From the NCBI GenBank assembly GCA_010909165.1, contig MU008167.1, positions 1,737,220 through 1,789,341 of the forward strand: DNA of 52,122 nt, given 5' to 3'. Under the pieces are notes generated by a model. It worked only from the letters and a program-made list of their open reading frames with translations, was not told where the DNA came from and did no database searches. This document shows positions 13,912-52,122 of this stretch, piece by piece. Position numbers and translations under genes: made by a program. Origin of the DNA: Anthoceros angustus (Eukaryota > Plantae > Anthocerotophyta). Numbering within the stretch: the first letter of the stretch is position 1; each line of letters opens with the position of its first letter.

Positions 13912-14073
13912 GGATGCTTACGATGCTAAGGGAAGATGCTTAGGATGCTAAGGATGGATGATTAGGATGCTAAGGATGGATGATTAGGATGCTAAGGATG
14001 GATGATTAGGATGCTAAGGATGGATGATTAGGATGCTAAAAGGCAGATGCTGAGATGCTAAAGCGCTAAGGAT
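13912..14073 (+). repeat. 22-bp minisatellite, second copy
   Basis: Same unit as 8161-8335. Confidence 0.95.
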
Positions 14074-23161: not shown

Positions 23162-23201
23162 GGGAGGTTGTATGTGGAAGGCCTCCTATAAGAGGAGGAG
23201 G
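23162..23201 (+). promoter_or_regulatory. Putative LTR TATA box (CCTCCTATAAGAGGAGG)
   Basis: Conserved ~0.8-0.9 kb from the LTR 3' end in four LTRs: 23182, ~30918, ~36615 and minus strand ~39963-39979. Promoter function is inferred. Confidence 0.55.
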
Positions 23202-26718: not shown

Positions 26719-29700
26719 TGTGGAGCCAAAGTTTGGGCAACCAGCCCAAAGAGACGACAAGTTTGATTTTTTTTGGCTAGAACGATTGAAGAGGAGGAGC
26801 ATGCGAAATTTTCAGAATCTTGAAGCTGGAGTTGTAGGATATTGTTAGGAAGGCGAAGAGGATATCCGAGGAAGAAGAACGGGTCAAAACGACCCCCGAG
26901 GCAAGCGGGCTCCGAAGGCGGTGGTCGGCAGACTACCGTCGTGACCACACCGTAGGCGAGAGGAAGGCGGACTACCGGTAGGCTACGAGATCTTGGACAA
27001 AAGGGAAATTAGGATAGGGAGATATCCACTATATATGCCCACCAATAGTGGACTAGATAAATGGGAATATTAAAAGCTAGATTGGGCCGTTAGGAAACTA
27101 GGGGAAATAGTATCTTAGTATAAGAGGAATTGGGAAACTCAATCAACAGAAAAGGTGCCACGTGGTGCATATCCAAGGCGGAGAAGATTGGTAGTTACCA
27201 TTCCTAACCCCCAAGTTATCTTTATAATCACGCATGTGTGTAGGAGGTCACAACTTGAAGGTGAGGAAGCGCCAACTGGGAAGGCGCACACCAAGAGTCA
27301 GAAGAGCCCCACATGTTGCGTACGTGCGTGCGGGGATAGAGAAGAGGGGCAAGCTAGGCAAAGAGGAAAATAGGCAAGACAAGTAGGGGTGCAACAAGAA
27401 GAAGAAGGAAGGAAAGGGCCGGGTGGAAGGAAGAAGGCAATGCTTGCCGCCCAAAGGAGTGTTGGAAGAGCAAGGCATGTCAAAATTGAAGAGAAAATTA
27501 TGAGAAGGGACTCTCAACTTGCTAGAAGATGTAAGAACTGAACCTTAGAGAATTCCTTCTTTCAAATCACAGAATTGGAAACTCGTGGAAAAGCAAGGGT
27601 ATAAGAGCTAGGGGAATTGTGAGCAAGGGCGAGGTCAAGGCCGGTGTGTGTGTGGAAATTGCAAGGAGCTGGAAGGTTCTTGGCATCCATTCAAGATTGT
27701 CCATCTCGTGCCAAGCATGGAAAGACCATTGCCTTTATGTTGAAGAAGACACTGAGGACAAGCATCGTCAAGCGCGCATCAAGGCTGGAGGACTCGAAGG
27801 AAGAGGAGGAAGCAGGTAGAACCCGAGGGGTTGTCGAGGAGGAGGAAACCTCCATGAGCGAGCCCCAGAGGAGCTCAAGAGATGCAGCCGGATAGGGCCA
27901 AATGGTGTATAGGGAGACGCCTACCATGGTAGGTGCACACCCTACCGTGATAGGAACAACACGCATAAGGGTGAGTGGGGTACCCACCCCGGGTACCCAA
28001 AGACCGTGGGTAGGCAGCCTACGTTGGTAGGTAGGCAGCCTACAAGGGAATTGGAGTGCCTAGCACATGTTGCGCAGGTGAAGGCCACAAGGCGAAGGAT
28101 GAAGAGAGAAGAGAGCTGAGTTATGGTGCACCAATGCTAGTCATTTGCAAGAGGAGGCCATGGGCCGAAGCATGTGGAAGTACTTGCAGTGGAGTAATGA
28201 TGTGAGGATGGCATGATAGGGCCGTGTGCTGAACTAGGAGAGGCCATGGCAAGCTGAATTTACAGCTGGGCTACAAGATGGAGGTGGCACAACCACAGGA
28301 AGGCAGTATTGCAGATGGGCTGCAATATGGTGAAGGAATCGCAATGGGGTGTGCATCATGAAGGCAAAATTCGCAGTTGGGCTGCAAGTAGGTGTGAAGG
28401 GAGGTCGTTGTGGTGTCCGCGAGAATTGGGCAGCAAGGTAGGCTGATTCGAGAGTTGGTCAAGGAGTTCGCTAAGGAGAAATGGAGAATGGAGCTTGGTG
28501 AGGAGTTCAATAATGAAACACCAAAATGTATGGAAGATATGCACAAGGAACTTGGTGTGTTGGATATCTGTATAAGAACTCCAGTTAAGCGTCCTTGGGC
28601 GGATCAAGACTCGATGGGGTGCCTTTTGTGAGTATGAGCTTATATTTGCAAAAGACACAAGGGAGCGATTGGGAAAGTTCTTAGTAGGGGTTGCAGGCAC
28701 GCGCACGGATTTTGGAGGCTGAGGATTGAGCTTTTCCTTGGGTTTTGATGGGTAGGATGGTCTCTATGGGCGCCTAGGGCCAAGGAGATGCAGGAATGTT
28801 GCTCTTGCACAAGAGTGAAGGATTGATGACTTAAGAGCCTTCTTGGTGCAAACCAACTAGGGTCTTGAATTTGTGCAAGATGGATGGAAAGGATCCTTAG
28901 ATTCATGGTGGGGATTGATGGCTACGATAGAAATTAGAGGTTATGGGAGTGGCTGGGCTAAATAATGGATGGGATATGGCCACATGCTTGCAGAACCACT
29001 CAAATCTATGGCTGCAATTTAGGAGCTCTGTTGCTATAATTGTCGCATGAGAAGACCGGAGCGCTGCCTAAAAGTGCAGAGGGAGTGAGCTAGAGCTTGT
29101 GTGTGCGCCTCTGCTGTGTGTGCCTTCTTAAGAGTGATGCCATCTCCTCTTGGTGTTCTCTTTCTTGTGGCACCAATTTCTTGGGTCTTGGTGTGCCTTG
29201 GCTTGGTTTTGAGTGAATTTCTTATAAGAGGGATGTCCTTAGTGTTCTTGGTGCTTAGCTTGGTGTTTGTTCTCCTCATGGGATTGCTAAGAGCCAAGCT
29301 GCAAGGATGAGGCTGGTTCGGAGGAAGCCAGTGTGGATGCCGTGAAGGGTTTCAAGGCCAAGAAACCCCAACTCATGAAGCGCATGGTGGTAGTTTGAGT
29401 GTAAACCCATTGCCAAAAATATTGGGCGATGGCATGGTGTGTGTGGAGGCCTACAATAATTGTGAAGAGGAGGATGCTTGGGCCACACGATGATGATAGG
29501 GAGGCCCTCGTGCATTAAGCCGGGGCCTTAGATTTTGATGAGGTCACAAGCGATATGGACTCGAGGAGTTTGGAGAAGAAATGGCGAGAGGAGCCCATAG
29601 TGCCATAAGGAACAGGAGGGAAGAAGGCAACCTACCACGGTAGGGAGGCAGCCTACAGAGGGAGGCGCCTACCGCCGTGGCAGACCGAGGCGGGCAGCCT

Positions 29701-31790
29701 CAGGAGTCAAGGAGGCAATGGATGCAAGTGCTATTGAGGGAGAGCGATGGTAGGGAGGCAAGTACTTTGGCCCCACGAGATGTTAAGGAGGAGGTTGTCT
29801 CCCTAGGAGAATGAAAATCACAAAGAGGAGCTCAACCTACCAACATAAGTGCAGGAGCAAGGAGGTCACTTGTTCCACAAGTGAAGGAGAGGAGGATGAG
29901 TCCTCGGCCAAAGGAAGGAGATGGCGCGGGAAGCAGGTAGGGGGTCACCCTACCACGGTGGTGACCACCCCACTGTAGTCTGCCGACTACCGTGGTGGCT
30001 ACCACCCCGTAGTGCGGACTACGGGTAGGGGTACCACGCGTGGGACCGGAGCCAGCCACGAGGCTGAGGATGGAAGGCGGGGATCCACATGCCCCTAAGA
30101 TAGATGATAAGGTGGTTGAGAAGCCAGGAGGAAGAAGGCGGGGTATGGCCGTGAAGGGGAGAAGGGTAAGAAATTCCCTCACCCCACGGATAAGGGAGGA
30201 GCCAGGGGCCAGAGAGGAGACCAACGCAAAGAAGGCCCGGAGGAATTAGCGAGGTGACAACATCGGTCAAGAAATGGGGAGGAACCTTTGAAGACATGCT
30301 CCATGATAGGTATGGACAAATCAAACAACAGGAAGGAGCAAAAGGATCTCAACCCTGTGGACCATCACCGATGAGGAAGAGGGAAGGAGATAGGGAGACT
30401 ACCATGGTAGGTAGTCACCCTACCCGGTAGTCGCCGGACTACCTAGGGTGCCCTTTGAAGGAGCCGCGCGGTGGAGGCTAGAAGATGGGCCATTCGAGTG
30501 CGCGGGCGCGATTGCCCGGATGGCAAGAGGAATCGGGCGCCGAGCGAAGAAGGCGGTGCCCCAAAGGTCGGAAGGGGGAAGGTACTTGCCCTAAAAGTCA
30601 TGAGGGGTCAGAGGCTGGGGAAGACCAGCAGCAAAAAGGGGAAGACCAGCAGCAAAGGGGATGAGAAGACCAACAAGGGAACCCTGCCACCAGCAAGATA
30701 AGGACCGAGAATTGTCAATGACCATAAATGAGCTTTGGGGAATGGGAAGGATAGGTGGTGTAGGTTGGCAACATTAAAGAGTGGCCATAGGTGAAGTTGC
30801 TAGAATAGAATTTACCTAGGATCGAAGAGACTTAGATGGCCTTAAATCTGTAGGAATAATAGAATATTGGAAAAGGTGACTGCAGAGGGTCACCCAAGGG
30901 AGGTTGTATGTGGAAGGCCTCCTATAAGAGGAGGAGGATTTCACAAAGTAAAGTATCATGTCTTGCGCTTCCGCTCGAGTCCTTTGCCATTACAGAGGAA
31001 TTTCGTGCGTGAGCCAACACGTCAGTAGAGGAAGTCGCGGTGGTCGAGTGCTTGGTGGAGGACTTGCTCGCTGCAAGTGCCTAAACGAGTTGCTCCCCTT
31101 GTGAATGGTTGCTGTGAAATTGCTTTGCTTTGGGTGTGTGGCAAATGCCCAGAGAACTCTCGGCTTGAGGGTAGACTACAGGGAAAGACTCCCTGGAGGT
31201 TCTCGCTGTCTGGTGTCAAACTCATAGCAACCGGCCCAAGGAAGAACTTGCTGGTGGAGGCGGACCCCAGGCAGTTGTGCCGTAAGGGCGAGTCGAAACC
31301 AGTAAGCCCGAACTGAGGTTAGACTAGGAGGAAGAGGATGAGGAGATGAGAAGATGAGTAGAGGATTAGAGGTGTAGGTGTTAGTGGAAGGCCACAGGCA
31401 GAGCCTAAGGGACGAATCCCAAATGCAAGTAAGCGCTCACAGGTGGAGTGGTCTTAAGTAGGGACGAAATCGCGGTGTGAACCGGGGGTCCCACAGGCGC
31501 CCGTGATAGGCTCCTGCTGAGGCGGGACACCTGGTTGTGTTGTGTCGTTGTGGGTCGGAGGTTGTGATTTTGAGGCGGTGCAAGTGGTGCGGCTGTGAGA
31601 GGAGAGTAGAGGCGCCTTGCTCGTGGAGAAGGCTGAGAAGTGTGTCCGCAGTGGCGATCGGGCATCACAAGGACCTCGAACTTTCACACAAGTCTCATGG
31701 GACGAAACCCAACGTACGAAGCGACAGTGGGATAAGTGTGGCCGCTATAGTGGGAGGACCTCGGGAGTGCCCCGGATTCTCCCTACCACA
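26719..31790 (+). repeat. 3' LTR, 5072 bp
   Basis: Begins TGTGGAGCCAAAGTTTGGGCAACC just after GTGAGGTGGGAGTA. Colinear with 18915-24040. Confidence 0.93.
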
Positions 31791-32249
31791 TACACCCATC
31801 CCAATTGGATGTTATCCTCCTCCGTCCATTGCCTTGTGAAATGCAAAAGTTTGGGCCCTTTATTTTTTTTTTGGTTAGAATTGACAAAACTTGGATCAAA
31901 ACGGACTCGGAAAAGTGCCAAAAGAATTTGCTAGGTATTTCTTTGTGGAAGCTCAGACGCAAGTGAGTGCAAGTAGAGATCTAGGTAGAGGCAAACCACT
32001 TGCATGCAGGAAGGGAGTTGCATATAGGGAGGAAGCGAGTGTGAATGATGTGGCAGAGGCAGCCCCTACACAAGGGAAAGATGGGTAAGAAGGGTATGTT
32101 GTCCAATAGATATAGGGCATGGCATTCCCTACCATAGGGAGGTGCACCCTACGTGGGGTAGGTGTAGGGTGGTAGCTGGCCCTACAAGAATGGAGAGGGG
32201 CTCCCTACATGGATAGTTTAAGCCAGTTCTAGAGTGTCAAAAGCTAGTC

Positions 32250-32606
32250 CTACAAAGATGAGACGTAGGGTGACAAAGGTGACCCTACATAGATAGGTCA
32301 TGGGTCCCTGCATGTATGTATGTGGGTAAGACGACACCGTGTCCCTACACGAGGGAGTAAGTAGGGGGAGCGCTCTACATGTGGATGGAGAGGCTCTTTT
32401 GGTAGATAGTATGTAGGGTGGCAAGGGTGACCCTACATAGATGAGACGTAGGGTGGCAAGGGTGACCCTACATAGATGAGGTGTAGGGTGGCAAGGGTGA
32501 CCCTACATAAATGAGGCGTGGGGTGGCAAGGGCCTACATAGATGAGGCTTAGGATGATAAGGGTGACCATACATAGATAGGACGTAGGGTGGCAGGGGCT
32601 CCCTAC
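32250..32606 (+). repeat. 35-bp tandem repeat GTAGGGTGGCAAGGGTGACCCTACATAGATGAGAC
   Basis: About five units at 32413-32606 plus one near 32250-32295. Each contains GTAGGG and its complement CCCTAC. Confidence 0.9.
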
Positions 32607-33420
32607 GGACGGTAGTTGGGGAGATAGGTAGGTAGGATGAGAGGTCTTCCTACCGTAAGGAGTGGTGAGGACTCCCTGGGCAGTGGAAGTGGGGTGCGAC
32701 ACCCTACTTGGATACCTTGGGAAGCAAGCTTTCCATATTAGGCGAGTTCCAACCTAGGAAGTTGTTAAAAGGATTGTATATGCAAGCTTGTGGATAAATA
32801 GGATATATTAGGAATAATAGAATATAAATATGTAGGAATAGTGTAGGGTGCTTTTAACATATAGGGCTGCTAAATAGAGGATGGTGGAAATGGTGCCACA
32901 TGGCAAGGAATCAACGGCCTAGTTTCACTGTCACTACCAAAGGGCCATGCGAGCTGGGTGTGTAGGGAGTGGCACCTAGGAAGCCTGCGAGGAATCGCGA
33001 GGAAGAGCTTGTGCATGCAAGGGAAAGCTAGGGCAAGGACTCGGTGAGAACGCGGTGCCCATGTGTATGCAAGGAGAAGGAGGTGTGCGTGCATAAGAAG
33101 TTGTGTGTGAAGGAATTTGAAGCACAACTGTGAAGAGGGCAGCGGCGTTGAATTTTTTGTGCCTAGGACCTTGCAAGTGAGGGATTTAGGCGCATAAGGA
33201 GCTGTATGCTATGAGGACATCAAGTTTGAGCTAGGTATGACTGTGGAGTGAAGAGGAAGTAAGTGGAAAAGGGCTGAAGTTGCTCTCTTAGTGGATTTTG
33301 TGTGGCAAGTAAAGAAAGCTTGCAATTGTGTGTAGAAACTGAGGTGACAACTGGGTAGAAAAGAGCAAGTGGGTGTGCCCAAGCTTGTCTTGTTTGTGCA
33401 ATTATCTTGAAGGGTGCAAG

Positions 33421-35480
33421 ATGGTGAAAGCGCCTGCACCTAAGAAGGGCAAGCTGGTTGCTAGGGAGCCGGAGAAGAGGTACAGATGCCCGAATTTAAT
33501 TGCTTCCCTGCACAGGTGGAGGCTAGGCACTTGGTGGCATTCAGACGGTTTGCTGGAGAGCCCAACGTACAATTGCAATGGGTGTATGGCCGCCACTGGG
33601 CCTATGTCAGCTTGGAGATGATAGAGGAATGCTTTATAAACTTCACTATGCCACGGCAGGAACTTGAGGAACTGGAAAATAGGGATGCAAGGACTGATCC
33701 AGGGTGCTGGACAGCCCAACACATCCGACAGGTATATGGAAGGCCAAATGAGGAGGCTCAAGAGGGGATTGCAATCATGGAGCTTGAAAGGAAGGTTGAG
33801 GAGAAAGGAGAAGAGAAAAAGGAGAATAGGAATTGTCATGAGCTGCTTAAGAAGGCCATGGACATGTTACAGCACGGGCATAAGTCTAGAGGGAAAGGTG
33901 GTTGATGCAAGGAAGAGAAATGGAGAATGTTTGTAAAGATTCTCCTTGGATTGGTGAGTGCTCAACGGAAGACATCTTAGTGATGCACAGTTGTATTTCA
34001 TTTGGAGGTTGTCTAGGGGGGCTACTTCGGATTGGGGAATGGTAATGTATGATGTTTATCGCACATCGCAAGGTTGCTTATGCCCAATGCCGAGAATCCA
34101 AGAGCACGGAGCTAATCTCCACCTACGATTCATATTTATGAGCTCCAAGGATTATTGAAGCTGTGGAGAATTGGAGTTTTCTAAGATGGATTTCCAAGAG
34201 GTACCATTGGATGCAGGAATCCCTAAGCCCGTGAGAGAAGTCCCCAACAAGAGACGGGAAGAAGGAAGCAATGGAGGATCTTGCCTACTTGTCCCATCGC
34301 AGAGGAAGAAGAAGAAGAGGTTCATCTAGTGAGAGCACCGAGGAAGAGAATGGTAGGAAGAGGTGAGTCGGAGCCACCTCCTACGGCGGTGGAGAGTGAA
34401 AAAGCTCTTGTTGAGAGAGTCAAGGCAGCTTCCATTGCGAAGGAAGCTGCAAGAAGAGCTGGTATGGGTGGAAGAGAAGGAGAAACTAGCAAGTCGGCGG
34501 AACTTGGGCAGGTAGGAAGGGCTAGCATAACCAGTGGGGCTGCCGTAGGGAGCGCATTGTCCTTTGCGTTCGTAGGCCCGGTGGAGGGAAATTTTCTTTC
34601 AATGTATGCGTCTTGTGAGTTCGACTTTGTATCGTGCAGTATAGCCGTATTCGTGAACGGGAACTTGAATTAGTTCCTTGCCCCGTGGCCCGATCGCGGC
34701 TGGGTCGATACGAGAGAGAGGGGAGAGGAAGGCCATGCTCATGGCATGGCATGTCGGTTCGCCAAGCCGCACTGCGAACCGATATTTAGGCCTAGCTGCT
34801 GCCTGAGGAAATGTGGATACAGAAGAATTAAGGGCAGCTCAAACTAGGATTGTAGAGCTAGAGTCAAGTGTAGGTAGGTTCTTGAAAGGGAAAAGCGACT
34901 TACATTGGACCTTGAGGAGCTGAGTTGAGGCATCAAGAGATGGTGCAAGAGTTGGATGGCATTATGGTGACACGCTAAGGAGAAGGAAGGATGGGCCTTG
35001 GAGAATCGAGGATGCGAGAACAAGTCCGGAGTTGGTGTATCGTGGCGATGGCCAAGAAGGATGTAAAGGAGGTCCAGGGCCTTGCAAAGGCTAAGGATGA
35101 CTTATTAAATGGCAAGGACCTCGAGGTAGGAGAATTGAGAAGGAGAAGGAGACCCTACAAGAGTCATGGGACTCCTCAAGCGAGTTAGAAGAAGCCAAGG
35201 GGCTGTGAGTGAAGCTAATCGTAGGGCCTCGCAAGAGAGAGAGAGAGTTGCAAGAAAGCTGAAGACATGGTACGCCGCTTGATGGTTGTGCGTAAGAGAA
35301 GGTTCGAGCCGATCATGCCCTGCAAAAGAGGATGTTGAGGCGCATCCATGATGCGGAGAAGGGTATCACGCTATGTCCATATAAGTGGGGCAGCTATGGA
35401 AAGGGATGCCTTGCACACGAAGTGTGAGATGGCAAGTGACTGCAGACTTGGAAGATTTGAAGAACAAATATCGCAACCTA
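33421..35480 (+). pseudogene. LTR-borne ORF: basic N-terminus, conserved domain, low-complexity linker, coiled-coil-like C-terminus
   Basis: MVKAPAPKKGK; QWVYGRHWAYVSLEMIEECFINF..NRDARTDPGCWT (33486-33905); DAQLYFIWRLSRGATSDWGMVMYDVY (33958-34158); charged region at 34800-35480. Confidence 0.75.
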
Positions 35481-35565
35481 CACCTTAATTCGGTGAATAG
35501 ACTAGTTAGGATCAAGGCTGATCTGTTGAGATTGGAAGCTAGCCATGCTTCAAGAGGGTCACAAG

Positions 35566-36560
35566 TGTCAAGAAAGTAAGTGTTCGATTGCAAAACTAAG
35601 CGAGGCCTTAAAACACAAGTAAAGAGCAACTTTGAGCATAGAACACAAAGACAATAGTCAAAGAGCTGAACCTACTATAGCTAGCTGGTCTCACCCTTTT
35701 AAACCCTAAAAGTGTCACTCACGTTTCCTACTCAATATGGGGTATATGTTTCCCATTTACCCACTTATATGCTCAATCACCTACATCTTTTACATAGTCA
35801 TATCCATCTTAACAAACTCGATGGTAACGCCGTCAACAATCCCACTCAGCGACCTGAGTTTGCCTTAATCCAACTACCTCTCTACACTTCTCAAACTTGA
35901 ACTTGCTCAAGCCTTGGTAAAGAAATCTGCAGCCATATCCTCCGTTTGCAATACTCAAATGGAACCTCCAATGATTTCACCCTTTCACGAACAAAGTGAT
36001 GTTGGATATCAATATGCTTTGTCCTTGAGTGGTGCAGGTTCTTGATCAATGCCATGCTTCCTGGTTGTCACTTTGAAGAAACGTTGGGTACACTTGTTGA
36101 TACCCAATTTCTTCCATGAACCTTCTCAACCAAATGGCTTCCTTTGTAGCTTGTGTGGATGCCATGTACTCACAGACATTACAGCGTTGGTTGCTTTTGC
36201 TATTCAACTGATGGCACCTCCCCTAGGATAAAAACATATCCGGTTGTGGACCTCCGATCATCAAGATCGCTCCCCAATCCAGTCACAATATCCAAGCGTG
36301 TCCTTCATTTGAACCTGAAAACTCAAGGTACATGTCATGTGTGACTTTCAAGTACCTCATTATCCTCTTCACGCAATCCAATGTGGCTTTCCGAGATTTT
36401 GCATATATTGGCTCACAGCACCTAGAGCTTTCTCAAGATCTGGACGAGTTGCAACCATGGCAAACATCATACTACCACCGCTTGTCTGTAGGAATGTTCT
36501 TCATCTCCTCCTCCTCGTGATTGGTTGCAGGACATTGGTCTTTGCTAAGCCTCATATCTA
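35566..36560 (-). mobile_element. Ty1/copia element B, 3' fragment: RT end, RNase H, PPT and 273-bp LTR (35566-35838)
   Basis: MFAMVATRPDL, RTKHIDIQHHFVRERV and DMAADFFTKA. GAGTGGGAT precedes an LTR reading TGTTGAC..TTGACA. Confidence 0.9.
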
Positions 36561-37494
36561 AGCAGGAGGCAGGAGGATCCCCATATACAACCTCCGAGGG
36601 AGGTTGTATGAGATCCTCCTATAAGAGGAGGATGATTTTACCGAAAAGTATCACGTCTTGCACTTCCATACTCATGAGTCCTTTGCTCCTTGTGAAGGAA
36701 TTTCGTCTTGTAAGCTAACGGTCTGGTAGAGAGGAAGTTTGGTAGTCGGTGCTTGGTAGAGGGCTCGCTCCTGCGCCTCGACGAGTTGCTCCCCTTGTGA
36801 ATGGCTGCTGTGAAATTGCTTTGCTTTGGGTGTGTGGCGATGCCCAAGGAACTCTCGGCTTGAGGGTAGCTACAAGGAAAGACTCCCTGGAGGTTCGCTG
36901 TCTGGTGTCAAACTCATAGCAACCGGCCCAAGGAAGAACTTGCTGGCTTGTGGCGGCACCTAAACCCAGGCGTTATGCCGTAAGAGCGGGGCGTGAGCTT
37001 GAAGTGAAGTTAGATTAGGAGGAGGATGATGAGTTGAGTTGAGCATTGAGGAGGATGATGAGTGGGATGATGAGTAGAAGATTAGAGTGTAGGAAATAGT
37101 GGAAGGCCACAAAGCGAGCCTTAGGGACGAATCCCAAATTTGTAACAAGAGGGAGCTCAAATTGTTGGAAGAGTTAGTCTTAGAGGTAGGGACGAATCGG
37201 CGTGGGTCATGGGGTCCCCGCCTGCGGTGGGCTCCTTTCCCGAGGCATGGCGTTGTGTTGTTGTAGGTCGGGAGTTGGTGAATTTTGAAAGGCAAGTGGT
37301 GCAGCTGTAGAGGGAGAGTTAGAGGGCGCCTTGCTTGTTGAGGGGCCGAGGTTGTGAATGGGTGAAGGCAACGATTGATCTCTCGTAATCCGGCTGTCCA
37401 CACAAGTCTTATGGGACGAAACCCGACGTCGAGTGATGGGATAAGTGTGGCCACTAGAGGGTGAATCTCGAGCCCCGGGGTTTTCCTCCGCAGA

Positions 37495-39169: not shown

Positions 39170-42100
39170 TGTGGAGGAAAACCCCGGGGCTTCCGTGGCT
39201 TCCCCTCTGGCCACACTTATCCCATTCGCCAAAACCGTCGTTGGGTTTCGTCCCATGAGACTTGTGAAAGTTCGAGGTCTTGTGATGCGATCGCTACTGC
39301 GAGACACACTTCTCGACCTTCTAAACAAGCAAGGCGCCCTCTACTCTCCCTCTTCACGGCCCCCACTTGCCTGCTCCAATCCTCGACCTACAACGACACA
39401 CAATTGCGGTCCGCCTTGGTGAGGAGCCTATCACGGGCGCCGGGACCCCAGTCCACACGCAATTTAAATCTAAGACCACTCTTCTCCCACTCGGGGCGCT
39501 TTTACTTGCGGTTGGGATTCGTCCCTTAGGCTCTGCCTGTGGCCTTCCACTAACACCTACACCTCTAATCCTCTACTCATCTTCTCATCTCCTCATCCTC
39601 TTCCTCCTATTCTAACCTCGATTCGGGCTTCTTGGCTCGCCCTTACGGCTGGCACAGGTCGGCCTCCACCAAGTTCTTCCTTGGGCGGTTGCTATGAGTT
39701 TGACACGGCGAGAACCTCGAGTCTTTCCACAGTCTACCCTCAAGCCGAGAGTTCACAGGCATTGCCACACACCCAAAGCAAAGCAATTTCACGCAACCAT
39801 TCACAAGGAGCAACTCGTTTAGGCACTTGCGTGAGCAAGTCCTCCACACTCAGACCACATGACTTCCTCTCTGCAGACTGCGTTGGCTCACCGGACGAAA
39901 TTCCTGTAATGGCAAAGGACTCGCGTGGGCGCAAGACATGATACTTTACTTTGTGAAATCCTCCTCCTCTTATAGGAGGCCTTCCACATACAACCTCCCT
40001 TAGGTGACCCTCTGCGGTCACCTTTTCCAATTCTATTATTTCCTATGACATTTAATGCGGCACCTAATCTATTATGCATCCTTGGTAAATTCTATTCTAG
40101 CAACTTCACCTAATCATCCTTAAGGATGTCATCTACACCTATCCTTCCCTTCCCCAAAGCTCATTTATGGTCATTGACCATTTAGTCCTTATCTTCTTGG
40201 GGTGGGACGTGTCCCTTGGATTGGCTCCCTCGCCCTCCTTTTGCTCTGTCCCTTCCCAGCTTGTCGCTTCCTAATGTGTGGGGCAAGTATCTGCCCCTTC
40301 CTCCATCTCAGGCGGCGCCCAATTCCTGTCCCCTCCGGTCGCGCCCCTGCGCCTGCCTTTTCTCCGCCACCTCGCGCTGGTCGCCCGTTCATCGCACCCT
40401 AGCGGTAGTCGGCGGACTGGGGTGGTGACCTACCATGGTAGTGATCTTCTTTTCTTCTTCTCCATCTCCTCCTCTTGAGTGGATCTTCATTGCTCCTTTC
40501 CTTCTGTTTGGATTTGTCCATACCTATCATGGAGCATTCTTCAAAATCTTCCTCCCCATTGTCGGATTTTCTAATCTCTCGGGCCTTTTGCATGGCCTCC
40601 TCTCTCCCCTTGCTCGTGGGTGGGAACTTCTCACCCTCCTTCCTCGGTCGGATCAGTCTCTCCTCCGGTGGGGTTGTCTCCCCCCCCTTCTCGGGGTATG
40701 CTGACCCCGGCTCCCCTCTCGGCGGGCCTCGGCGACTCAAGCCCGGCGCTCGCGCCCCCTACCCGGTGGTCGGCGGACTACGGCGTGGGTGGTGTCCCGC
40801 GGTGGTCTGGCGGACTACCGTGGTATGGTCACCGTGGTAGGTGACCCCTGGTGGGTCCCCCCTCCTTGCTCTCGCGCCATCTTCCTCCTTTGGCGTCCGG
40901 CCTCTCCTTCTCCTCGACTCCTCGTTCCTCGGAGTCCATTTGGCCTCATCAAAATTAGGCCTCAGGCTGCACTTGTTCGGCTCCCATCATCATGAGGACC
41001 CAATGTCCTCCTCTTGGCCAAGTAAGACTCATTGTTGGCCTTCAAAATCTATTGTGAGCCCCAAGCTATGATGCATTTGGAGATCATCAATCTCCGTGGG
41101 CCACTCTCCATCCTCACACCTACCTTGTAGGCATCCCTTGAGGTGGTCAATTCCCACCTTCACATGGAGGTTACATTCTCTCCTCCTTGCTTTTGGTTGG
41201 CCAATTTTGCTGAAGGGCATAATCCAAAATCTCCTCTTCCTCACCACCCATCCATGCACCACCTTCTTGTGGTGCTCCTCCTCTGGAACCTCCTTTGTTC
41301 CAGCTCATTGCTTGGCAAGCCTCCTTCTCCACTTGCCAACTCACTTCTCGCGCTCCACTCTTCTTGTCTTGAGCCTTTAGCTCACGCTTCTCTTCAAATT
41401 ACCGGGTCCTTAATTCCTCTCCATGTCCGGATCTTGATGGCTTAGTAGCCATCACTGCTCTTGTGTCCATTTGTTGGACACCTTCTCCTTCCTAGAGCCT
41501 CTGTTTTGCCCTTTCTCTTGCTAATTGGGCAAAATGCTCCTCATATACGCCTCCAAGTCCCGTTGGGTTGTTGCCGAATGGCTCTTTCTTGATTTGTGAC
41601 AACCTTCCCTCAGGACCTTCTCCTCTCTGGTGAGTCGTGGAGCTTCTACCTTTTCCAACTTGGCTGCCTTCGTCGGACTCCATGGCCTCCAATTGCCATT
41701 TGGTCCACTGCCTTCCTCCGGCCATGTCTTGGGCTTTGACTTCCTCTTGCATGCCCACAAGGAGGCTAGCTCCTAGCCCCTTCAAATCCACATGAGTGCT
41801 TCACAAGCACTCGGCAATTCTCTAGGGTCCTAATTCCACCCCTCCTTCTTCTGGAAATTTCCAGCTCCCTCACCTCGGGCCATCGCAGCGTGGTCCCTCC
41901 CTCATCCGCCCTTCCTCCCGGCGGTGGTGGCCTCGGCGCCTTGCTCTCAGCTTCTTCTCCTTCCCTTCCCCGTAGCTGGCGTGGGCTGCCCTGCGTGTGC
42001 ACGCCTACCATGGTGGTCCCTCCCCTATGATACCACCTCTGGTGGTCGCCTCTGATGCGCCTTGGGTGCCTCCCCTCTGGGTAGGTGCCTCTCTCTAGGC

Positions 42101-43950
42101 ACAAAGGAGATGGTGGGGACTCCCCACCCTTGGTATCACCCCTCACTGGTAGTCCTCCTCTCATAGACTACCATTCGGCCTTCCTCGGCGGTTCTTCCTC
42201 TCCTCCTCCTTGCTCTGTGGGGAAAAATTCCCACTCGCAACCTTGTTGCCTCACATCTCTCCCTTGCTCTAGCATGCTTGTGGAGTCGACCTCCCCTCTT
42301 CCTCAATGCAAAGGCAAGGCCTTTCCCTGGAGATGGATTATCTCAAAGGATGCCAAGCATCTTCAACTCCTTGCTTGAGAAGTCCCTCGGTTTCCACAAT
42401 GCACCAAATAGGTGCTAAGGTAGCAGGCCTTGGCCTTCCTCATCCACCGAATTGAGGAGCTTCTCGGTGGTGGATGTAGGCCTCATACATGATGGTCCCC
42501 AATCGCTTGGCTCCCCAAATCTTCCACAAAATTGGAGGAAGTTGGTGCTTTGAAGAGTCGTTGGTAATTACCAACCCCGGCACAATCTTAAGAGCCTCCA
42601 CTTGACTCCTTGATGCTCTCGGTCTTCCAGCCATTCTTGGCGTGGGCCTTCACTCCTCCATCCATCATGTCGAGGAACTCTGCGGAATGTCGGAGGGGCC
42701 GTCCTCTTCCTCCATTCGACCTTCGAGGGAGCAATTCGAGCTCTCCTCCTCGGTCTTCCATACACATCGAATGCTCCTTACGGTCCAGCGAGGATCGTTC
42801 GAGCATTCCTTTCCGTGCGGCAAGGGGCCGATTGATGGAGGTTGATGTAACACTCCTCAATCAATTCCAAATTGGTGTAGGCCCATTGGCGGCCATACAC
42901 CCATCCAATTGGATGTTATCCTCCTACGCCCTTCGAAAATCAACCAAATCGCGGGGTTGTGCCAAAGCAAGTGAATTGGGGCATCTCGCTCACCTCTGGC
43001 AGTGGCCCTCTCTGCCTTCTTTCCTCCTCGCCTCGAGGAGCCCTTGGCGGCTCCTTCCCTTGCCTTTTTCCCTCGAGGCATGGTGCGTCCTCTCAAGTGC
43101 TTCAAAAGGAAATTACTTCTCCAGCTTCAAAATTCCCACTCTCACCTCTTCCTTGTGTAACCCCCTCTCACCACGCCACGTTAGCCACAGTTTGGCTGCT
43201 CAATTCCTCTTGATTCTTCTTCCGGTGCGCGCAGCGATCTGCGCTCTCCTCTCAATTCCCCAGCGCTCGCGCCTCCCCTTTTGCTCCGCTCCTTCTCAAT
43301 TGGTGCTCCTCCTTCCCACTCTGGCGCTCCGCGCTTCCCCTCCTCGCCTCCGCTTGGGTCTCCTTCCCGATGGGCGTTCTCGCTCCTCTCGGCGCTCGTG
43401 ATGGCGGCCTTTTCCTTCCGATGGTCTTCCTTCCTTCTCTTTCGCTCCAACTCCTCGTTCGCTCTTCTCGAAGTGAGGAGGGCGCGCCAAAGCACTTTGC
43501 CCTCTTTTGGATGCCACACAGGCTGCACAACCCTAGATTGGTTCATCATTCCAAAATCCTAATCCTACTACCTATTTTCCTATCTTTCCTACCCTAATTA
43601 ATCTATATATTTATTCCCTATTGGTGAGCATATATAGTGGATATCCCCTTATTCTAATTTCCTTTTGCGAGATTCGTCGACCTACCCGTGATGGTCTCTT
43701 CTCGACCTACGGCGTGGTGTGGCGACCTACGGTAGTCTGCCCGACCTACCGACGCCCTCACGCTCGCTGAGTCGTTTTGACCCGTTCTTCTTCTGGGATA
43801 TCCTCTTGCCTTCCTAACAATATCCTACAACTCCGACTTCAAGATTCTCAGAAAATTTCTTGGCATGCTCCTCTTCAATCGTTTTAGCCAAAAAAATCAA
43901 ACTTGTTGTCTTGGCTCTTTTGGGCTGGTTGCCCAAACTTTTAGTTCACA
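39170..43950 (-). repeat. 3' LTR, 4781 bp
   Basis: Minus strand reads TGTGAACTAAAAGTTTGGGCAACC to GGTTTTCCTCCACA. Both ends are homologous to the TSD-defined LTRs. Confidence 0.88.
41450..43082 (-). pseudogene. LTR-borne ORF inside the 3' LTR, same strand as pol
   Basis: MPRGKKAREGAAKG..GWVYGRQWAYTNLELIEECYINL..LDMMDGGVKAHAKNGWKTESIKE..GTIMYEAY..AWHPFEIIHL. The 3' limit is approximate. Confidence 0.8.
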
Positions 43951-43989
43951 TACTCCCTCCTCACTGTTTGCGTCCAAACAACGCTAATT

Positions 43990-46900
43990 TGAGGTACTTC
44001 TTAACCTTCCACCCATTCACTCGTGGGTAATTCGCCTAGTACGGAGTTGCAGATCCATTCTCATATCTGCGACCACCTCGTAGGTCCCATCCATCTCAGC
44101 CTAAGCTTCTGGAAGTCTAGGTGCTCGACTATCATAGAAGAACCAAATCCCGTCCACGATAGCCTCTTGCTTCCTCAACTTCCCATCATGCGATCTTTTA
44201 CGAGTTCCACATCCTGGTTTCTTCTAAAGCATCCTCCCTCGTTCCTCCTGCTCTATGAGATTCTAGTCTAGCTACACTATCTCTCTGATCATCGTTCATC
44301 CTCCATGATCACAGCAGGTAGGTACTTCAAATTCCACGGGCATCACGGGACATGCCATGTTAGATAATAAGGGGTCTTCTTGGTGGTTACCTTCTCCATG
44401 ATCTGTAGCCCACGGTCTTGAATGCAACTTAGCATCCCAATCATACATGTGTTCGATTACCTTGGTGAGGATTGTGCGCAACCCATTCGTCTTCTCCGTC
44501 ATTCCGTTTGCCTTTGGGGTTGTAGGGGTCGTCTTCGATGCGAATGTTGAAGTAGGTGGTTAGGGACTCAGCGAGTTGAGGAAATGTGTCCCTCGTGACC
44601 AACTCTAAAGGACATCCGTACCTCGTTATGATGTTCTCGAATAAAAACTTTGCCCAGTCGTCGTCCTTCCTCGTCCGCTTCCACCATCTTGTACAATAAT
44701 CAGCCACCAAAATGTCCTTCTTAGTCCATTGCGTTGGTGGTTTGATCGGTCATTCCCCACTTCTCGAAGGTGCTAGCGGTAAGATGTAGGTAAGAGGCCA
44801 TTGTGTACAACGTGGGCCGTAACCCTCGACACGCATCACACCTCGGTGAACTCCCACATCCTTTTGCGCCATAGCCCACGAACCACATTCAAAATCTTCT
44901 TAACGGTCACTGCGAATAGTGTCCTGCCTCTTACGCATGTATGCCTCCGTGGGTGAGCCTCTTGCTCGAGGCATCTCGGATCTTCTCGTCCCCAAGTTTA
45001 TAGACGCCCTTTGCAATAGGCGAGGCTTTATGGAGAAAAAACAGCCGCCCCCCTGGACAAACCATCGGGCATGATTCCATGCTCCAGAATTGCGTACTTC
45101 CATTCAAAATCTTGGGCATGAACGCCCCTCGCGTTCTAATCTCCTCCTTCCGGGCGTACTCGTGCCTCCACCTAGCTCGTCCGTTAGGCCCCGGTGGCGT
45201 GGATCTATCCAAATCCATCGCCTCCACCGCCCGCCCATCTTGCGTTCCCTGCGGCGTTTGCATGCTCCTCCTCGGCAACGGGATCTCTTCCATTCACGCT
45301 GGTCTAGCCTCGTGTCTAGGTCCGGCTCATTTCATGGCCTCTTTTCACCTCCATGTCCTCCTGGTGATTTCCCATGAATCCATTCTCCTTCTCCTGTTTT
45401 CTTCAAAGCATGGGGTGCATCTCCTTCCTTTTGCCAACTCGTGGCCTCCACTTGCAGCCCTTGTTGCTCACCCTTGAGCATTCAGCCTCCTCCTCGCGCC
45501 CATCTTGGCGCCTCCTATCTCCCCTCGGTTCCAGTTGTCCTGCTGACTTTTCTGCGCTCCCTTCTTGCTCATTTGGCCTCTCCTGCAACAAGACTTGCTG
45601 ATCAATTCTTAGGCCGTCAACATGCTCACGTCCTCCCCTTGACGTGCGGCAACTCCTCGGAAATCGGTCTCGTGGCCTCAAGTCGCTCTCCGGTTTTCGG
45701 CGAGAAATGAAATCAGCATTTTGATGTTGCTTCCACGCCTAGTTTCTCGTCGTAGTCAAACTCTTGCAGCATAGTACCCATCGGCAATCCTTCACGACAA
45801 ATCGGCTTGACAAGATACTTCAGCATAAAATGGTCAACATGGAGCGTCACCTTGCAAGCAAGCGGATAGTGTCTAAACTTCTTACAAGTAAATGATACCA
45901 AGACCCTCCGCTCCGTGGTTGAGTAGTTCTTTTCGTGGTGACATTTCTGCATAGAAAATCGGATGATCCGTTTCTTCTCGTCCGGCTTAAGGCGGTCCCA
46001 ATGGCATAGCGGACACATCACGTATACATGAAGCGGTTTCTCCCCGGCGGTTGTAACGTTGGTGCGCTCACCAGCATCCTTGAAAAGCCTCTGTCTTGTT
46101 GTCCATTCGAAGGTGTATCCTTCTTGGTCAATTGTGTCAACAAGGCTGCCTTCTTGGCGAAATCCTTGATGAACCTCACGTAATATCCTACCAGCCTACA
46201 AAAGCCTTTCTCACCGTTTGTGGTGCGTCCATCTCGACTATAATTACTCTTCTCCTTATCTACACCGCAATCCTCTCAAACTCGATGTGCTAACAAAATA
46301 CCCCTCATCATACAAAATAACACTTCCCGGATGAAGTTTCATGTTCGACTCTGCATTTGGAAACATTGTCTCAAATGATCTAGATCGGTTTCCTCCAAAC
46401 ACGAAATCATCTAGGAATACCTCCATGAACTTTTAAAATCTCAATATATCACCACCTGAAAGTGGCGGGGCATTACACAACCGAAGGGAGCTTGAATAAG
46501 CGTAAGTTCCCCAATCCGTTGTGAAGCGTTGTCTTGTCTGATCCTCCTTCCTCCGAAATGATTGTACCCATATCATCAAGTACATCTCTCATGTCTCATG
46601 TCCAGCCCTGTCCATGAAAGGCAAAGGTGATGATCCTTCTTCGTTCTTCATTGAGCTTCACGAAATCACACATGCGAACCTTTCCTGCTTCTTGGTACAA
46701 TCACGATGGGCGACCCACTCCTAGTGAGCAGGATAATTACTCACCTCCAAATATTGGTCGGTGATCCTTACGACCATGGAATACTTGGGATTCAGCATCT
46801 TGATCCTCGAGTCTTGCCCTCCTTCAAATTCGATGTATCCCAGTTCTTCCTATTCTGTCATGTCGGTAATCTTGAAGGCAAACACATCGACATACTCCCT

Positions 46901-47375
46901 AAGCATACTCGAAACTCTTCTCTACATCCTAGATACCTAGAAACCTTGACTACCTTGCGGGTTCTAACTCTAAGTCCTCCCACGGGATCTACATATGTTC
47001 CTTTGCTGCTACTGTCGGGATCCTCTCGGAAAATCTCATAAGCTTTACCCTTCAAAGGCTACTCCTCTCTATGTGCCTCATCTTGACTCTTCTGACTTCC
47101 TCTATGCGCATGAATACTCCAAATCACTCTTTATTTGACCTCATTTTGAGGACCCCGATATGCTCGATCCTTTGCAGGAGCTTACCCGTGCTACGAGGTG
47201 TACCCGCAGTGGGTCGGGACTCCCCTCATAGGGCCTTGCTCCATGACACAAAAGCGATCAGGTCCGTATCTCTTGGACTTGAAGGTGATGCCACTCGACC
47301 AAAATCAAAAACATGTACCATACAACCAAGGCCTACCTATCAAAACCTTATAGCCTAAATAAATGGCGCATCACA
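43990..47375 (-). pseudogene. Gypsy pol (PR end, RT, RNase H, spacer, IN), frameshifted
   Basis: ORF-track fragments 46858-47055, 45713-46021, 44441-44710 and 44296-44502 in gypsy domain order. Confidence 0.92.
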
Positions 47376-47384
47376 ATGTGAGGC

Positions 47385-50300
47385 TTAATGTATTCGTCTG
47401 AGACAAATAAAGCGGCGCTTATGTCATTCCGGAATCGCATGCCAGTATATGGCTGCGCCTCTCCCAAGTCATCATTTCAAAGTGAGCATTCAACTTTGAC
47501 TTCATGAAATCTCATCGATCTTGTTCGACAATTAGCATATCATCCACATAGAGGATCAAAATGAGCAAGCTTTGATCCTTAGCTTGCTTTATAGAGGCAA
47601 TGATCCTCATCGCTACGTTTGTAGCCTTGAGAAAGCATAAATGAGTGGAACTTGTGATACCACTCTCTGGTGCTGTTTCAAACCATAAAGGCTCTTCCTC
47701 GCACACACGGATGCTCTTTGCCCTTCTCAACAAAACCTTACGGTTCTTGCATGTATAGGCGTCCTCTTGAAGGTCACCATGCAAGAATGCCGTCTTGACA
47801 TCCATACAGTTCCATATCATTCACGGCAACCAAAGCGAGAACACGCAGTTGTCATTTTGACTCGGTGAGAAAATCTCATCAAAGTCAATGCCTGGTTGTT
47901 GCTTGAAACCCTTAGCAACCAGTCGTGCCTTGTACTTTGGTTTGCCATCAAGCGGTATGACCTTCATCTTGTACACCCATTTGCATGGTAGTGCCTTCTT
48001 ATCCTTAGGCAACAGAACCAACTCCCAAGTTTGGTTCTTATGCAGCGAATTCATTTCTGACTGCATGGCCTTCTCCCACTTCTCTTTGTTGCTCATTGAC
48101 ATGGCCTCGTTGTAAGAAGAGGGTTCCCCACAATCTGTCGGACATAATCCGAGATGGATCATACACAGAGGTGTAATCTGCACGACCTCTGAAACAGCAC
48201 CTCTATAGGTGCTTGTTCGACTCTTGGTTCATCTACGGTGGAGGAATGTGCTCCACGCACATTACCACGTTATCAACGCCCATGATGATCATGTCCATCT
48301 TCTTGGAAGATCACCCTTCGCACCTCCACGGTTGGAGTAGGCTTCACATCTTGTTCTCATTGAAGAACACGTCGTTAGTCGAACAACCTTTCTAGCCTCT
48401 GGATCCCACAAGCGGTATCCCATCTCACGGAATCACCATAGCCAAGAAAAATACATTTCTTGGACTTAGGTGCCAACTTGTCCCGAAACTCTTTTGGAAC
48501 ATGGCGGTATGCCTCACGCCAAACACTCATGATGCTTGTAGGATGGTTTCTTTCCACCATAGCTCCTGGAACTGCTCATCAATGACCTTATTAGGAGATC
48601 TGTTAAGATGAACTGCGATGAACGCTTACGCCCAAAACCCATTAGGCAATCCGAGTTTGACAACAAACTCGCATCCTCTCACGAATGGTTACATTCATCC
48701 TCGGCACACCATTTTGTGGAGGAGTATCTGGTGATCAATTCTCTTTTGATTCCTTGGAATCAGAATGACTGAAAGCTTTCGAAACATACTCACCATTATC
48801 GTCTTAGACACTTCAATCGGTGGCGGTGATTCTCTACAAGGGTGACAAATTTACGAAACACCGTGAACTTCATCCTTTTCCTCAAAGGATAAACCCACAC
48901 CTTGCGTGAGAAATCATCTATGAAAGTGACAAAATAGGCACCGCCTAATGATGATCATGGCATAGGTCCACATACATCACGTGAACCAACTCAAGAGGTT
49001 TACTCCTACTTTTACCTCTTGTTCGATGTGATGATTTTATCATTTCCCATATAAGCAGTGCTCACACATCGAGATCGAGAGAAGTTAAAACGAGGATATA
49101 ACGAGCGAGATAAAACCTTCATTCCCTTAGACATATGTCCTAAGCAATGCCACAAGGAAACATTTGGTGCTCTGTCACACGATCACATGATCTTTGATGT
49201 TTACAGTGAGTACAAAGTGCCACACTTGATCCACGAGCTAACACAAGAGAACCTTTGGAGATCTTCCAAGAGTGATCCCCAAAACCAGTGGTAACCAGCA
49301 TCATCCAAGCGCTAATCATGCTCTTTGTCAACTTGAACATGCCGTCCTTGCATGAATGAAGATCCGTTGTCAACTTGAGTTGCACATCACCTCGCTGCGA
49401 TCGGCATGCGTAGTTATTTCCAAGCCTAACGCATCCTTTCCTTGTAGCATCATCGTAAACCACACTCTCTATGAGTAACATGGAAAGATGCACCGAGTCA
49501 ATTATCCAATTGCGAGAATAAATGACTATCCACACGTTAATTGCGCATTCAAGTAAGAAGAGATAAGGACATCTCCGTCCTCAGAGTTTAACTCTTCCAA
49601 CTGACACGAAGTCGCCTTCTTGTCGTCTGCTTCTCTTTTCCTTGGTCCTTTTGAACTTCTCGCACTCTCTTTTGAAGTGACCCCTTTTGTGACAATAGTG
49701 ACACTCCACATTCTTATTACGACTACGAGATTTGCTACGAGAAAGCTTGTCGGTTGCTTCCCTTGATGGACCTCCCTCTCACTATGAGGGCACTTTGGAA
49801 CCTTTGGAAGGTTCCATGTTTTCCTGTTCACCTCCTCGTTAACAGGCTACCTTCTACATTTACAATGGTAAGACCACTAGCGGTAATTACTCAGGCATGC
49901 GAAAGGTGTCCCAACTCTCGGTAATGTGACCAGAAACATAGCTCTCTCGGAATGCGTGATACCTTGAGATGAGGCTGAAAATGGTATTGAAATCATTCGA
50001 TGATCGGACATCCTCGTCCCTTCCTTCATCTTCAAGTCCACCATGTTTCAACCAATACACGAAGCACTTTGCTTCTCATACAGTCACAACCACACGCATC
50101 GTAACTCGTGGTCTTATCTTTCACATTGAAGTACTGTTTTTGACAATGTTAGCATGATAGTAGATCTAGCAAGCTCATCCAGTCCCGCCACTCATCCTGA
50201 GTCATACTATCGGTTTGGCCTAACAACTTTATGGGCTTGATCGCTTTTTACGCACTAGAACATTATACACTTGTTCTTTCCGAGCGGGAAGTTAGTACCA

Positions 50301-51375
50301 TCTAACTTCGATATTGAACATGACGTTTTCGATGATGAAGACATCATGACTCAAAAAATCGTCTGATAAAACACTCGACGCCTTGTCGGAAAAGTCAAAG
50401 AAAACGATCCGTGCGGTGTGTATTTTGCCGTTGACTATTCCACCAGTATTCGAATATTTCGGCGAATTTTTACGCTCCGCCGGCGTTGGCACCCCTGTGC
50501 TGCCGCCGGCCACACGCGGCGCTGCCGCCCCGCGCCCGCACGGCGCCCGGCAACCACGGCGCGCCTGCACCCGCCGCCGGCCGCGCTGCGGCTGCGGCCG
50601 GCGCCCGCGCCTGCGGCTGCGCGCGCGCCACAGCCTGCGCGCGGCTGCGCGCCCGCGCCCGCGGCTGCGGCCCATGGCCGGCGCCCGCGCCCTGCGGCCG
50701 CGCCGGCACCCGCGGGCCCGCAGGCTGCGCGCCCTGCCGGCGCCCAGCGCCCGCCCGGCTGTGCCGCCGCGCTCGCTGGCGGCTGCACGCCGCGCCCGTG
50801 GCACCGGCGCTCCGCCGCGCCCGGCCAGCGCCCGCGGCGCCTGCCGCGGCTGCGCGGCTCCCGGCGCGCCCCGCTGCCTGCCCGCCCGCGGCCCGTGTTG
50901 CGCCGGCCTCCGCCCGTGCCGCCGCGGCCGCGCGCTCCGCCGCGGCCTCCACGGCCCGGCCGCCGCGGCCAGCGCAAACGGCTGCGGTGTGCCCTCGCTC
51001 ACGGCCTCGCCTCGCGGCCTGCGGCGTTGACCCTCGCCGCGATCTGGATCACCACCGCAATTCCACGAGCTGCGCACTGCGGCTAGAAAATTCTAGCATC
51101 ACAACACCAAACCAAGCTCGATACCGGTTGAAGGATCGTGTGACCATGCGGTGGGAGGAGAGGAGAGGAGGAGGCAAGTGTAGCTCTCTCACATTGAGAT
51201 GAGGCTTGGAGGGTATTTATACCTCCAATAGGGCTCCCTAGGAAGCTCCACAAGAAGCCCCTAGGAAGGAGCACAAGAAGCTTCTAGTGATTAGCTTGAC
51301 TAAACTAATGATATAGCGACACCTAACTTAGACTAAGTGTATTGGTCTAAGTGCATTGACTTTAATACCTTTACA
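47385..51375 (-). mobile_element. Ty1/copia element C (Tnt1-like), 3'-truncated within RT
   Basis: 5' LTR ~51127-51375 (starts TGTAAAGG; TATAAATA at ~51213-51220). tRNA-iMet-like PBS GGTATCGAGC (~51116-51125). gag MFNIE..DGTNF (~50330), zinc knuckle ECHYCHKRGHFKREC (~49665-49710), PR WIIDS, IN DKLAPKSKKCIFLGYG, RT KARLVAKGFKQ, MDVKTAFLHGDL and LYVDDMLI. Confidence 0.94.
50475..51040. other. Extremely GC-rich low-complexity tract in the 5' leader of copia C
   Basis: Almost entirely G/C by eye (GCGGCTGCG and CGCCCG motifs), lying between the PBS and the gag start. Confidence 0.85.
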
Positions 51376-52122
51376 TCCCTACCCATGTGGGTGTTGACAA
51401 AGGGGGCAGAGATGTAAGTAGTATGTAGGGCATGTCACCACATGGGTAGCATGTAGGGCGAGAGGCTCCCCTAGGAAATGATTAGGTAGGTAGATGGGTA
51501 GGATGAGAGTGTCTCCTCACACCAGGGTGGTGAGGTCTCCCTACCGTGAGGAGTGGTGAGTCTCCCTACGTAGGGTGGTGAGGTCTCCCCGTAGGGAGTG
51601 GTGAGGTCTCCCTGGTAGGGAGTGAGGTCTCCCTACATGGGCAGCGGAGGTGGGGTGCGACACCTACATGGGCACCTTGGGCAGCAAGCTTTCCAGTTAA
51701 GCGGAGGATGGTGGAAATGGTGCCATGGCAAGGAATGAGCAGCCTACATCAAGTAGTTTCAATGTCACTACCAAGGGGCCATGCGAGCTTGGTGTGTGAG
51801 CACCTAGGCAAGCTTGTGAGGAATCGCGAGGAAGAGCTTGTGCATGCAAGGGGCCAAGTGCAGGGCGAGGTTGGTTCGGAGGAAGCTAGGTATGGATGCC
51901 GTGAAGGGTTTTGAAGGACAAGGAAACAAGCTTATGAAGCACATGGTGGTAGTTTGGAGTGTGAGCTCGTTCTTTGGAAATATTGGGCGTGGACGGTGTG
52001 TGTGGAGGCTTGCAATAATTGTGGAGATGGAGTGCAAACCACGGGAAGAGCATGGGTCTCTTCTCCACCAAGCTTTAGATTTCATGATGTTGAGTGTGTG
52101 GCTCGGAGCCACTGTGGAATTA
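51376..52122 (+). mobile_element. Internal fragment of a giant-LTR family LTR with a ~25-bp tandem repeat (51525-51637)
   Basis: 51640-51850 matches 32680-33022. 51868-52025 matches 21543-21695. Repeat unit is approximately GGTGAGGTCTCCCTACCGTAGGGAGT. Confidence 0.8.

Follow-up and report, generated by a model that had tools for sequence, protein, structure and literature searches.

Plant Ty3/gypsy retrotransposons can carry extra open reading frames (ORFs), which are placed in the internal region between the long terminal repeats (LTRs) (PMC7264820). A sense ORF of Athila elements has been linked to the family PF20167 (PMC11728184), and LTRs that reach about 5 kb have been described for non-chromovirus elements of plants (PMC6317226). 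Plant LTRs themselves are treated as non-coding, and the formation of solo LTRs is seen as the deletion of element genes by the host. The arrangement differs in vertebrate retroviruses, where sag and nef lie in the unique 3' region (U3) of the LTR and where mouse mammary tumour virus (MMTV) has extra U3 promoters (PMC12789967). Here we describe a stretch of 52,122 nucleotides (nt) from contig MU008167.1 of Anthoceros angustus, hereafter the window, which is a cluster of nested LTR retrotransposons. We are confident that one of these gypsy elements harbours a selected protein gene inside a giant LTR. The LTRs and ORF copies are designated A to G, as listed in Table 1.

LTR A is read as a 3' LTR with limits fixed independently of the ORF, because its ends are homologous to those of LTRs F and G, a polypurine tract (PPT) adjoins it, and a pol region bearing an RNase H precedes it. 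The first 350 nt and the last 1.1 kb of LTR A are 78-80% identical to F and G, which are bounded by a target site duplication (TSD), and the segment 43951-44239 matches the sequence before LTR G (26412-26718) at 76%. The RNase H was recognised by Pfam in 45716-46195 (RT_RNaseH, PF17917, E 3.7e-8). The pieces that we take to be the reverse transcriptase (RT) and the integrase of element A, neither of which Pfam detected, were assigned by eye from motifs. A PDB sequence search with two pol pieces returned no match, and Pfam revealed no additional archaeal-type RNase H, a feature of the Tat clade, in 43950-47500, where pol is broken and incomplete. The first-pass annotation, made from the letters of the window, had fixed the LTR limits by a TSD, PPTs and shared termini. 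The shared termini hold, the terminal motif occurring at exactly six places in the window (mean 0.015 and maximum 1 over 200 local shuffles), but a TSD is found only at F/G and a purine tract only before A and G (12/15 purines before G; 3/15 before B, 7/15 before F, and 9/15 before C and D). The 5' end of B is supported by the terminal motif and by a contig of run X2, a run assumed to be RNA, which shows a purine tract before 31835.

An assembly artefact as the source of the long LTR, with the ORF in fact internal and in front of a short LTR, is very improbable. Although the contig contains duplicated, indel-rich segments and conservation between subfamilies is limited to the last 1.1 kb and the first 0.35 kb of the LTRs, this explanation is already largely refuted by the 5.1-kb F/G repeat, whose flanking 5-bp TSD interrupts a recognisable ORF copy, and by an independent X2 contig in which the integrase end, the PPT and the LTR start are contiguous in one piece.

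In copy A, the ORF starts at LTR offset 870, the conserved domain lies at about 1000-1500, and a TATA-like block, the candidate promoter, at 3975. The TATA-like 10-mer recurs at LTR offsets 3975-4784 in A, F, G and B, and the homology among A, B and F extends from the 10-mer block to the LTR 3' end. This 10-mer probably represents the LTR promoter, which would give a U3 of about 4 kb and a region comprising the terminal repeat and the unique 5' part (R-U5) of about 0.8 kb. As the motif read as the LTR promoter is downstream of the ORF, the coding block of A probably lies between the PPT and this promoter motif, i.e. in the U3. In A, F, G, C and D, an upstream TATA-like 9-mer, a candidate promoter of the ORF itself, lies 311-377 nt into the LTR; the window has nine matches to it against 0.15 expected.

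The ORF copies are related at the protein level. Frameshift-aware comparison of the domain gave scores of 236 (B-A), 211 (B-E), 321 (E-A), 91 (E-D) and 77 (B-D), which were reached by none of 25 shuffles, the maxima of shuffled queries being 47-54; weaker scores were obtained for E-C (62, 0/25 shuffles), B-C (54, 4/25) and D-A (56, 1/25). The first motif is common to A, B and E, as previously claimed, with 12 invariant columns in a three-row alignment. The later block, which had been attributed to all copies to varying degree, is confirmed in A, B, E and D and weak in C, but F and G, with scores of 31-48 inside the shuffled null, were rejected as carriers of the full domain. The protein likeness despite divergent DNA is also borne out: BLASTN yields no match between B and C and only 42 nt between A and C, and the E-D and B-D scores exceed all 25 shuffles. 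ORF starts had been placed at 43082 in A and at about 14845 in C; the former is corrected to 43081 and the latter lies at 14844.

The substitutions at codon positions 1/2/3 number 15/10/30 for E-A, 18/14/32 for B-A and 6/7/13 for B-E, with a significant third-position excess in two of the three pairs (A-E, p 0.001; A-B, p 0.004). The ratio of nonsynonymous to synonymous differences per site (pN/pS) is 0.23 for E-A, 0.24 for B-A and 0.33 for B-E in frame, against 0.62-2.39 in six shifted frames. This pattern shows purifying selection on the predicted gene across three subfamilies. A frame-blind periodicity test was significant for A-E (p 0.001) and for none of six non-ORF LTR controls. If the ORF were a passenger, that is, an old nested element or a captured gene fragment in U3, the selection signal would stem from the donor family. 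The heavy nesting of the region (F/G in E, B beside it, copia in B) and the spread of F/G without the domain would suit this explanation, which we nevertheless consider unlikely, given that the ORF keeps its strand and roughly its place behind the LTR end across three subfamilies with U3 DNA that no longer aligns, that pS between copies is high (0.54-0.82) while pN is only 0.14-0.20, and that the domain was never seen outside an LTR-like context except in the unanchored fragment E.

The reading frames of about 1.6-2 kb that had been described could not be recovered: no copy is open in the contig, and the longest in-frame domain piece, in B, has 146 codons. These frameshifts cannot be read as real decay, because duplicates within the window differ mainly by gaps and the window lacks letters that are present in independent contigs. 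In five internal duplicate pairs, substitutions amount to 2-3% and gap events are about twice as many as mismatches. The short-read contigs of run X1 gave 149 indel rows, and all 12 rows shown are letters missing from the window. The ORF-breaking indels thus look like read errors. Contig depth was not taken as copy number, and two bins within 43016-43517 are nearly without contig coverage and uninformative.

With regard to transcription, one X2 contig has joints in the U3 of B (33191-33770, + strand) that imply two GT-AG introns separated by a 15-nt mini-exon, both being canonical by chance with a probability of about 4e-4. This contig shows sense transcription through U3, the run being RNA by assumption. 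Unspliced related sequence is also present in X2, because the first motif is matched at the end of a 1188-nt contig (depth 58.5), although the strand and RNA status of this contig are unproven. These data bear on the possibility that the gene was once functional and is now decaying or silenced by splicing, its U3 transcript mattering as RNA or not at all. Every copy is broken in the contig and the only spliced contig deletes the start codon and the first motif, as this explanation would predict; it is nevertheless improbable, as the indels resemble read errors and the first motif is retained in the 1188-nt contig, subject to the same reservations.

The predicted protein of copy A begins with a basic N-terminus, in which 10 of 25 residues are K or R, a content reached by 2.9% of windows in the same LTR. 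The coiled-coil-like ends that had been ascribed to the two longest copies were evaluated with a crude heptad test, which upholds them for C (p 0.003) and B (p 0.020) and is only marginal for A (p 0.063); these values are uncorrected, and two of 14 pieces fall below 0.05. The basic N-terminus and the coiled-coil tails hint at a nuclear protein. A role as an env-like or movement factor acting at membranes rather than in the nucleus appears rather remote. Athila sense 3' extra ORFs are often called env-like with transmembrane segments (PMC7264820), and one frame of B contains a hydrophobic stretch near 34500-34670, but inspection by eye showed no comparable stretch in A or C, and the N-terminus is basic.

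Searches for homologues, families and folds gave no accepted match. With the 146-residue block as query, phmmer found nothing at E up to 0.001 among 1.84 billion representatives, and word-seeded homologue searches scored none of 1315, 119 and 7993 candidates. Scans for similar loci were equally empty in metagenome contigs (0/123 and 0/160 candidate stretches), GTDB genomes (0/35) and viral contigs (0/6). The single match among 85 viral-contig stretches, L001, was rejected, as it sits in a collagen-like phage repeat. Pfam, including PF20167, PF03078, PF04195 and PF10536, gave no match over 78 and 12 fragments of the ORF, which cover the domain only partly. The spacing of the two motif blocks is reminiscent of Transposase_32/ATHILA ORF1, a tentative lead. 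Structural models of 171 and 91 residues reached a predicted local distance difference test score (pLDDT) of 49.7 and 60.9, respectively; the input of the first fold job (alignment A1) had two out-of-frame rows. Viral fold searches gave 0/97 matches at E up to 0.001, and the best PDB structure match (Z 4.3, root-mean-square deviation 3.3, 79 aligned residues) was not accepted. These blanks are weak evidence, because only fragments served as queries and even the RT and integrase pieces escaped Pfam.

The only complete two-LTR element in the window is F/G (18915-31790), with LTRs of 5.1 kb, TG...CA ends and a 5-bp TSD at 18910-18914 and 31791-31795. A TGG triplet lies a few bases 3' of LTR F, at the candidate position of the primer-binding site. 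As Pfam matches neither RT nor RNase H in its internal region, the element is probably non-autonomous. About 450 bp between the RNase H and the integrase of A (45250-45700, - strand) recur in this internal region (25480-26020, + strand). In place of the domain, both LTRs hold a shorter ORF piece that corresponds to a different, downstream ORF segment common to A (score 88 against A and 544 between F and G, null maxima 46-65; 82% DNA identity between F/G and A over 55 nt, E 9e-9). The first-pass annotation had concluded that an accessory gene moved into U3 and is doubled at each transposition. The selected gene in LTR A supports the first part, whereas presence in both LTRs applies only to the shorter ORF of F and G. 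In LTR F, a 34-bp unit holding the TATA-like block is further repeated 3.4 times in perfect tandem at 21695-21808, 1.4 kb upstream of the normal copy; no extra tandem copies of the 10-mer occur in LTR G.

Survival of the gene in solo LTRs had also been proposed. Copy B was rejected as a proven solo LTR, because no TSD was found and a copia fragment separates the ORF from the 3' end, making B chimeric. This copia fragment (35580-36590, - strand) stops right at the TATA block of the B-type LTR, a border that suggests a recombination or deletion junction. C and D, which start at 14351 and 8618 and had been counted as separate copies, are one duplicated insertion, because both lie in one segmental duplicate, where indels account for most of the differences (94 gap events, 49 mismatches); they were rejected as independent copies. 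Their assignment to LTRs rests on the terminal motif and on the 9-mer at an offset similar to that in A, F and G. F/G and B are inserted about 40 bp apart in the conserved domain of copy E (18914 and 31791-31834), and a preference of the family for insertion into its own U3 is possible.

Taking these observations together, we moderately favour the explanation that a Ty3/gypsy lineage with LTRs of 4.8-5.1 kb carries a selected sense gene in the upstream part of its LTR, the product of which would be a nuclear helper acting in trans. The gene may descend from an extra ORF of the Athila type, situated between pol and the 3' LTR, which would have become U3 once plus-strand priming shifted upstream to a purine tract adjoining the integrase end. 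Reverse transcription would then copy the gene to both ends. It would be the last cistron of the genomic RNA, and its expression would therefore probably depend on splicing or on a second U3 promoter, for which the TATA-like 9-mer, about 315 nt into the LTR, is the candidate, as in MMTV sag. The basic N-terminus could serve nuclear import or nucleic-acid binding, and the conserved helical domain, together with a coiled coil for oligomerisation, could form a protein that raises the element's expression or shields the element from silencing. The VANC-type anti-silencing protein binds sequence-specifically to its own element and demethylates it. In cis the gene seems to be dispensable, given that F/G, with its internal deletion, transposed although it has no conserved domain. 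A bolder version, which is tentative and rather doubtful, is that a high-copy lineage turned its whole 3' accessory region into a U3 with a private promoter, so that every LTR, solo LTRs included, would be an expression cassette for a new nuclear anti-silencing or trans-activating family driving non-autonomous partners too.

Several points weigh against the favoured explanation. The only complete, TSD-bounded two-LTR element in the window lacks the conserved domain, and no ORF copy is open in the contig. The pN/pS values of 0.23-0.33, significant in two of three pairs and obtained from copies none of which has an open frame, were calculated in frames chosen from cross-copy similarity, and the third-position excess between B and E is not significant (p 0.058). 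The frame-blind test reached significance in only one of five ORF pairs (A-B, p 0.056); it has low power, because neither of the two pol positive controls passed it (p 0.41 and 0.81). The purine-rich sense strand inflates the content of K, R and E, and the spliced X2 contig (depth 4), with its RNA status assumed, drops the start codon and the first motif. The border between U3 and R was placed by motif and not by a mapped start site; the 9-mer is absent from B, and four of its nine matches lie outside these LTRs. The origin by a PPT shift has no supporting sister element, and the helper function is conjectural.

Table 1. Positions in the window of the LTRs, ORF copies and associated features
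Feature	Positions	Strand	Basis or remark
LTR A, 4.78-kb 3' LTR	39170-43950	-	TG...CA ends, homology to F/G, PPT directly upstream
U3 ORF copy A: basic N-terminus, conserved domain, low-complexity linker, possible coiled coil	41171-43081	-	many indels; 3' limit inferred
Conserved domain of copy A, about 170 codons	42450-42950	-	low pN/pS, third-position excess
Upstream TATA-like 9-mer, 314 nt inside LTR A	43629-43637	-	candidate own promoter of the ORF
TATA-like 10-mer, candidate LTR promoter	39967-39976	-	same 10-mer in A, F, G, B
PPT of element A, directly behind integrase end	43951-43965	-	13/15 purines
Gypsy pol preceding LTR A, broken: RNase H, candidate RT and integrase end	43966-46900	-	Pfam RNase H
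LTR B, 5' part, containing ORF copy B	31835-35580	+	terminal motif; ORF start 33421, in-frame block 33465-33902
GT-AG intron 1, with ORF start codon	33344-33464	+	implied by one X2 contig
GT-AG intron 2, with first motif	33480-33714	+	implied by the same X2 contig
copia RT/RNase H fragment inside B	35580-36590	-	tblastx to copia copies of the window, E 1e-10 and 2e-5
TATA block and R-U5 of B-type LTR	36594-37492	+	no TSD with 31835
Copy C, probable LTR 5' end, diverged ORF copy	14351-16460	+	terminal motif, 9-mer at offset 371; start 14844; coiled coil 16043-16318
Copy D, truncated duplicate of C	8618-9990	+	duplication, domain score
ORF copy E (domain), split by F/G insertion	18450-18914, continues 31796-31834	-	homology to A, B, D
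LTR F, 5' LTR of complete but internally deleted element	18915-24040	+	5-bp TSD; 3% substitutions against G
Shorter related ORF piece without conserved domain	19865-20278 in F (G: about 27620-28010)	+	score 88 against A
Internal region of F/G, 2.7 kb, integrase 3' end and PPT	24041-26718	+	three segments match A internal region
LTR G, 3' LTR of the same element as F	26719-31790	+	repeat, TSD, purine tract

Outside the gypsy RNase H, Pfam recognised copia RVT_2 in the window, the remainder being sub-threshold noise (78, 104, 12 and 54 fragments). The copia reverse transcriptase pieces lie at 2477-3056 and 47515-48228, both on the - strand; the second immediately precedes the gypsy RT of element A and shares its strand, occupying the position expected for gag and protease. 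Direct duplicates within 1-15725 and 16143-18099 are 88-91% identical and differ mostly by indels; they are probably single loci that appear twice in the assembly because the reads were noisy. The region 50300-51200 has a GC content of 0.66, contains short imperfect repeats and is open in several frames, with no Pfam match. The end of the window (51590-52050, + strand) is a mosaic, in which 51603-51852 matches the U3 of B and 51845-52032 that of F/G, which suggests a further subfamily or U3 recombination.

If the favoured explanation is correct, each insertion would double a U3 gene, and solo-LTR deletion would not remove it, so that solo LTRs could supply a regulator in trans. An arrangement like that of MMTV sag would then be known from plant retrotransposons as well, and the role of extra ORFs in plant gypsy elements would gain a defined test case. 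Compared with the extra ORFs of plant retrotransposons, the position in U3 is what is new. No plant LTR-encoded gene was encountered in the literature searched, mostly titles and the beginnings of abstracts, with most subscription journals outside its scope, and the accessible parts of PMC11963269, PMC3485330, PMC5408684, PMC10508981, PMC13468544 and PMC1560396 show no LTR-resident ORF.

The closest known systems each share some features with this locus. The Athila extra ORFs (ATHILA ORF1, PF03078; Transposase_32, PF20167) are likewise in sense orientation, comprise about 500-700 codons and lie downstream of a gypsy pol (PMC7264820, PMC6317226, PMC11728184), whereas the ORF described here is downstream of the PPT, inside the repeat, and its fragments have no Pfam match. 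The Retand/Grande antisense ORFs (Transposase_28, PF04195) and the Ogre PMD ORFs (PF10536) are conserved extra genes of non-chromovirus gypsy elements, some of which are nuclear and have been proposed as transposition regulators (PMC11963269, PMC6317226). They are antisense or upstream of gag, and internal, and Retand LTRs measure 0.3-1.2 kb (PMC11963269, PMC6317226), in contrast to the sense ORF in the LTR found here. Retrosat2 and RIRE3 combine LTRs of more than 3 kb with a lineage-specific ORF0 and so resemble the present element in having a long LTR and an extra ORF, but they are Tekay chromoviruses with ORF0 upstream of gag-pol (PMC3485330). MMTV sag and nef of human immunodeficiency virus 1 (HIV-1) are, like the present ORF, protein genes in U3 upstream of the main LTR promoter, which here is a candidate; additional U3 promoters and spliced messages are found in MMTV (PMC12789967). 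These are genes of vertebrate retroviruses to which no sequence relation is implied, and the U3 that would hold the gene in A. angustus measures about 4 kb.

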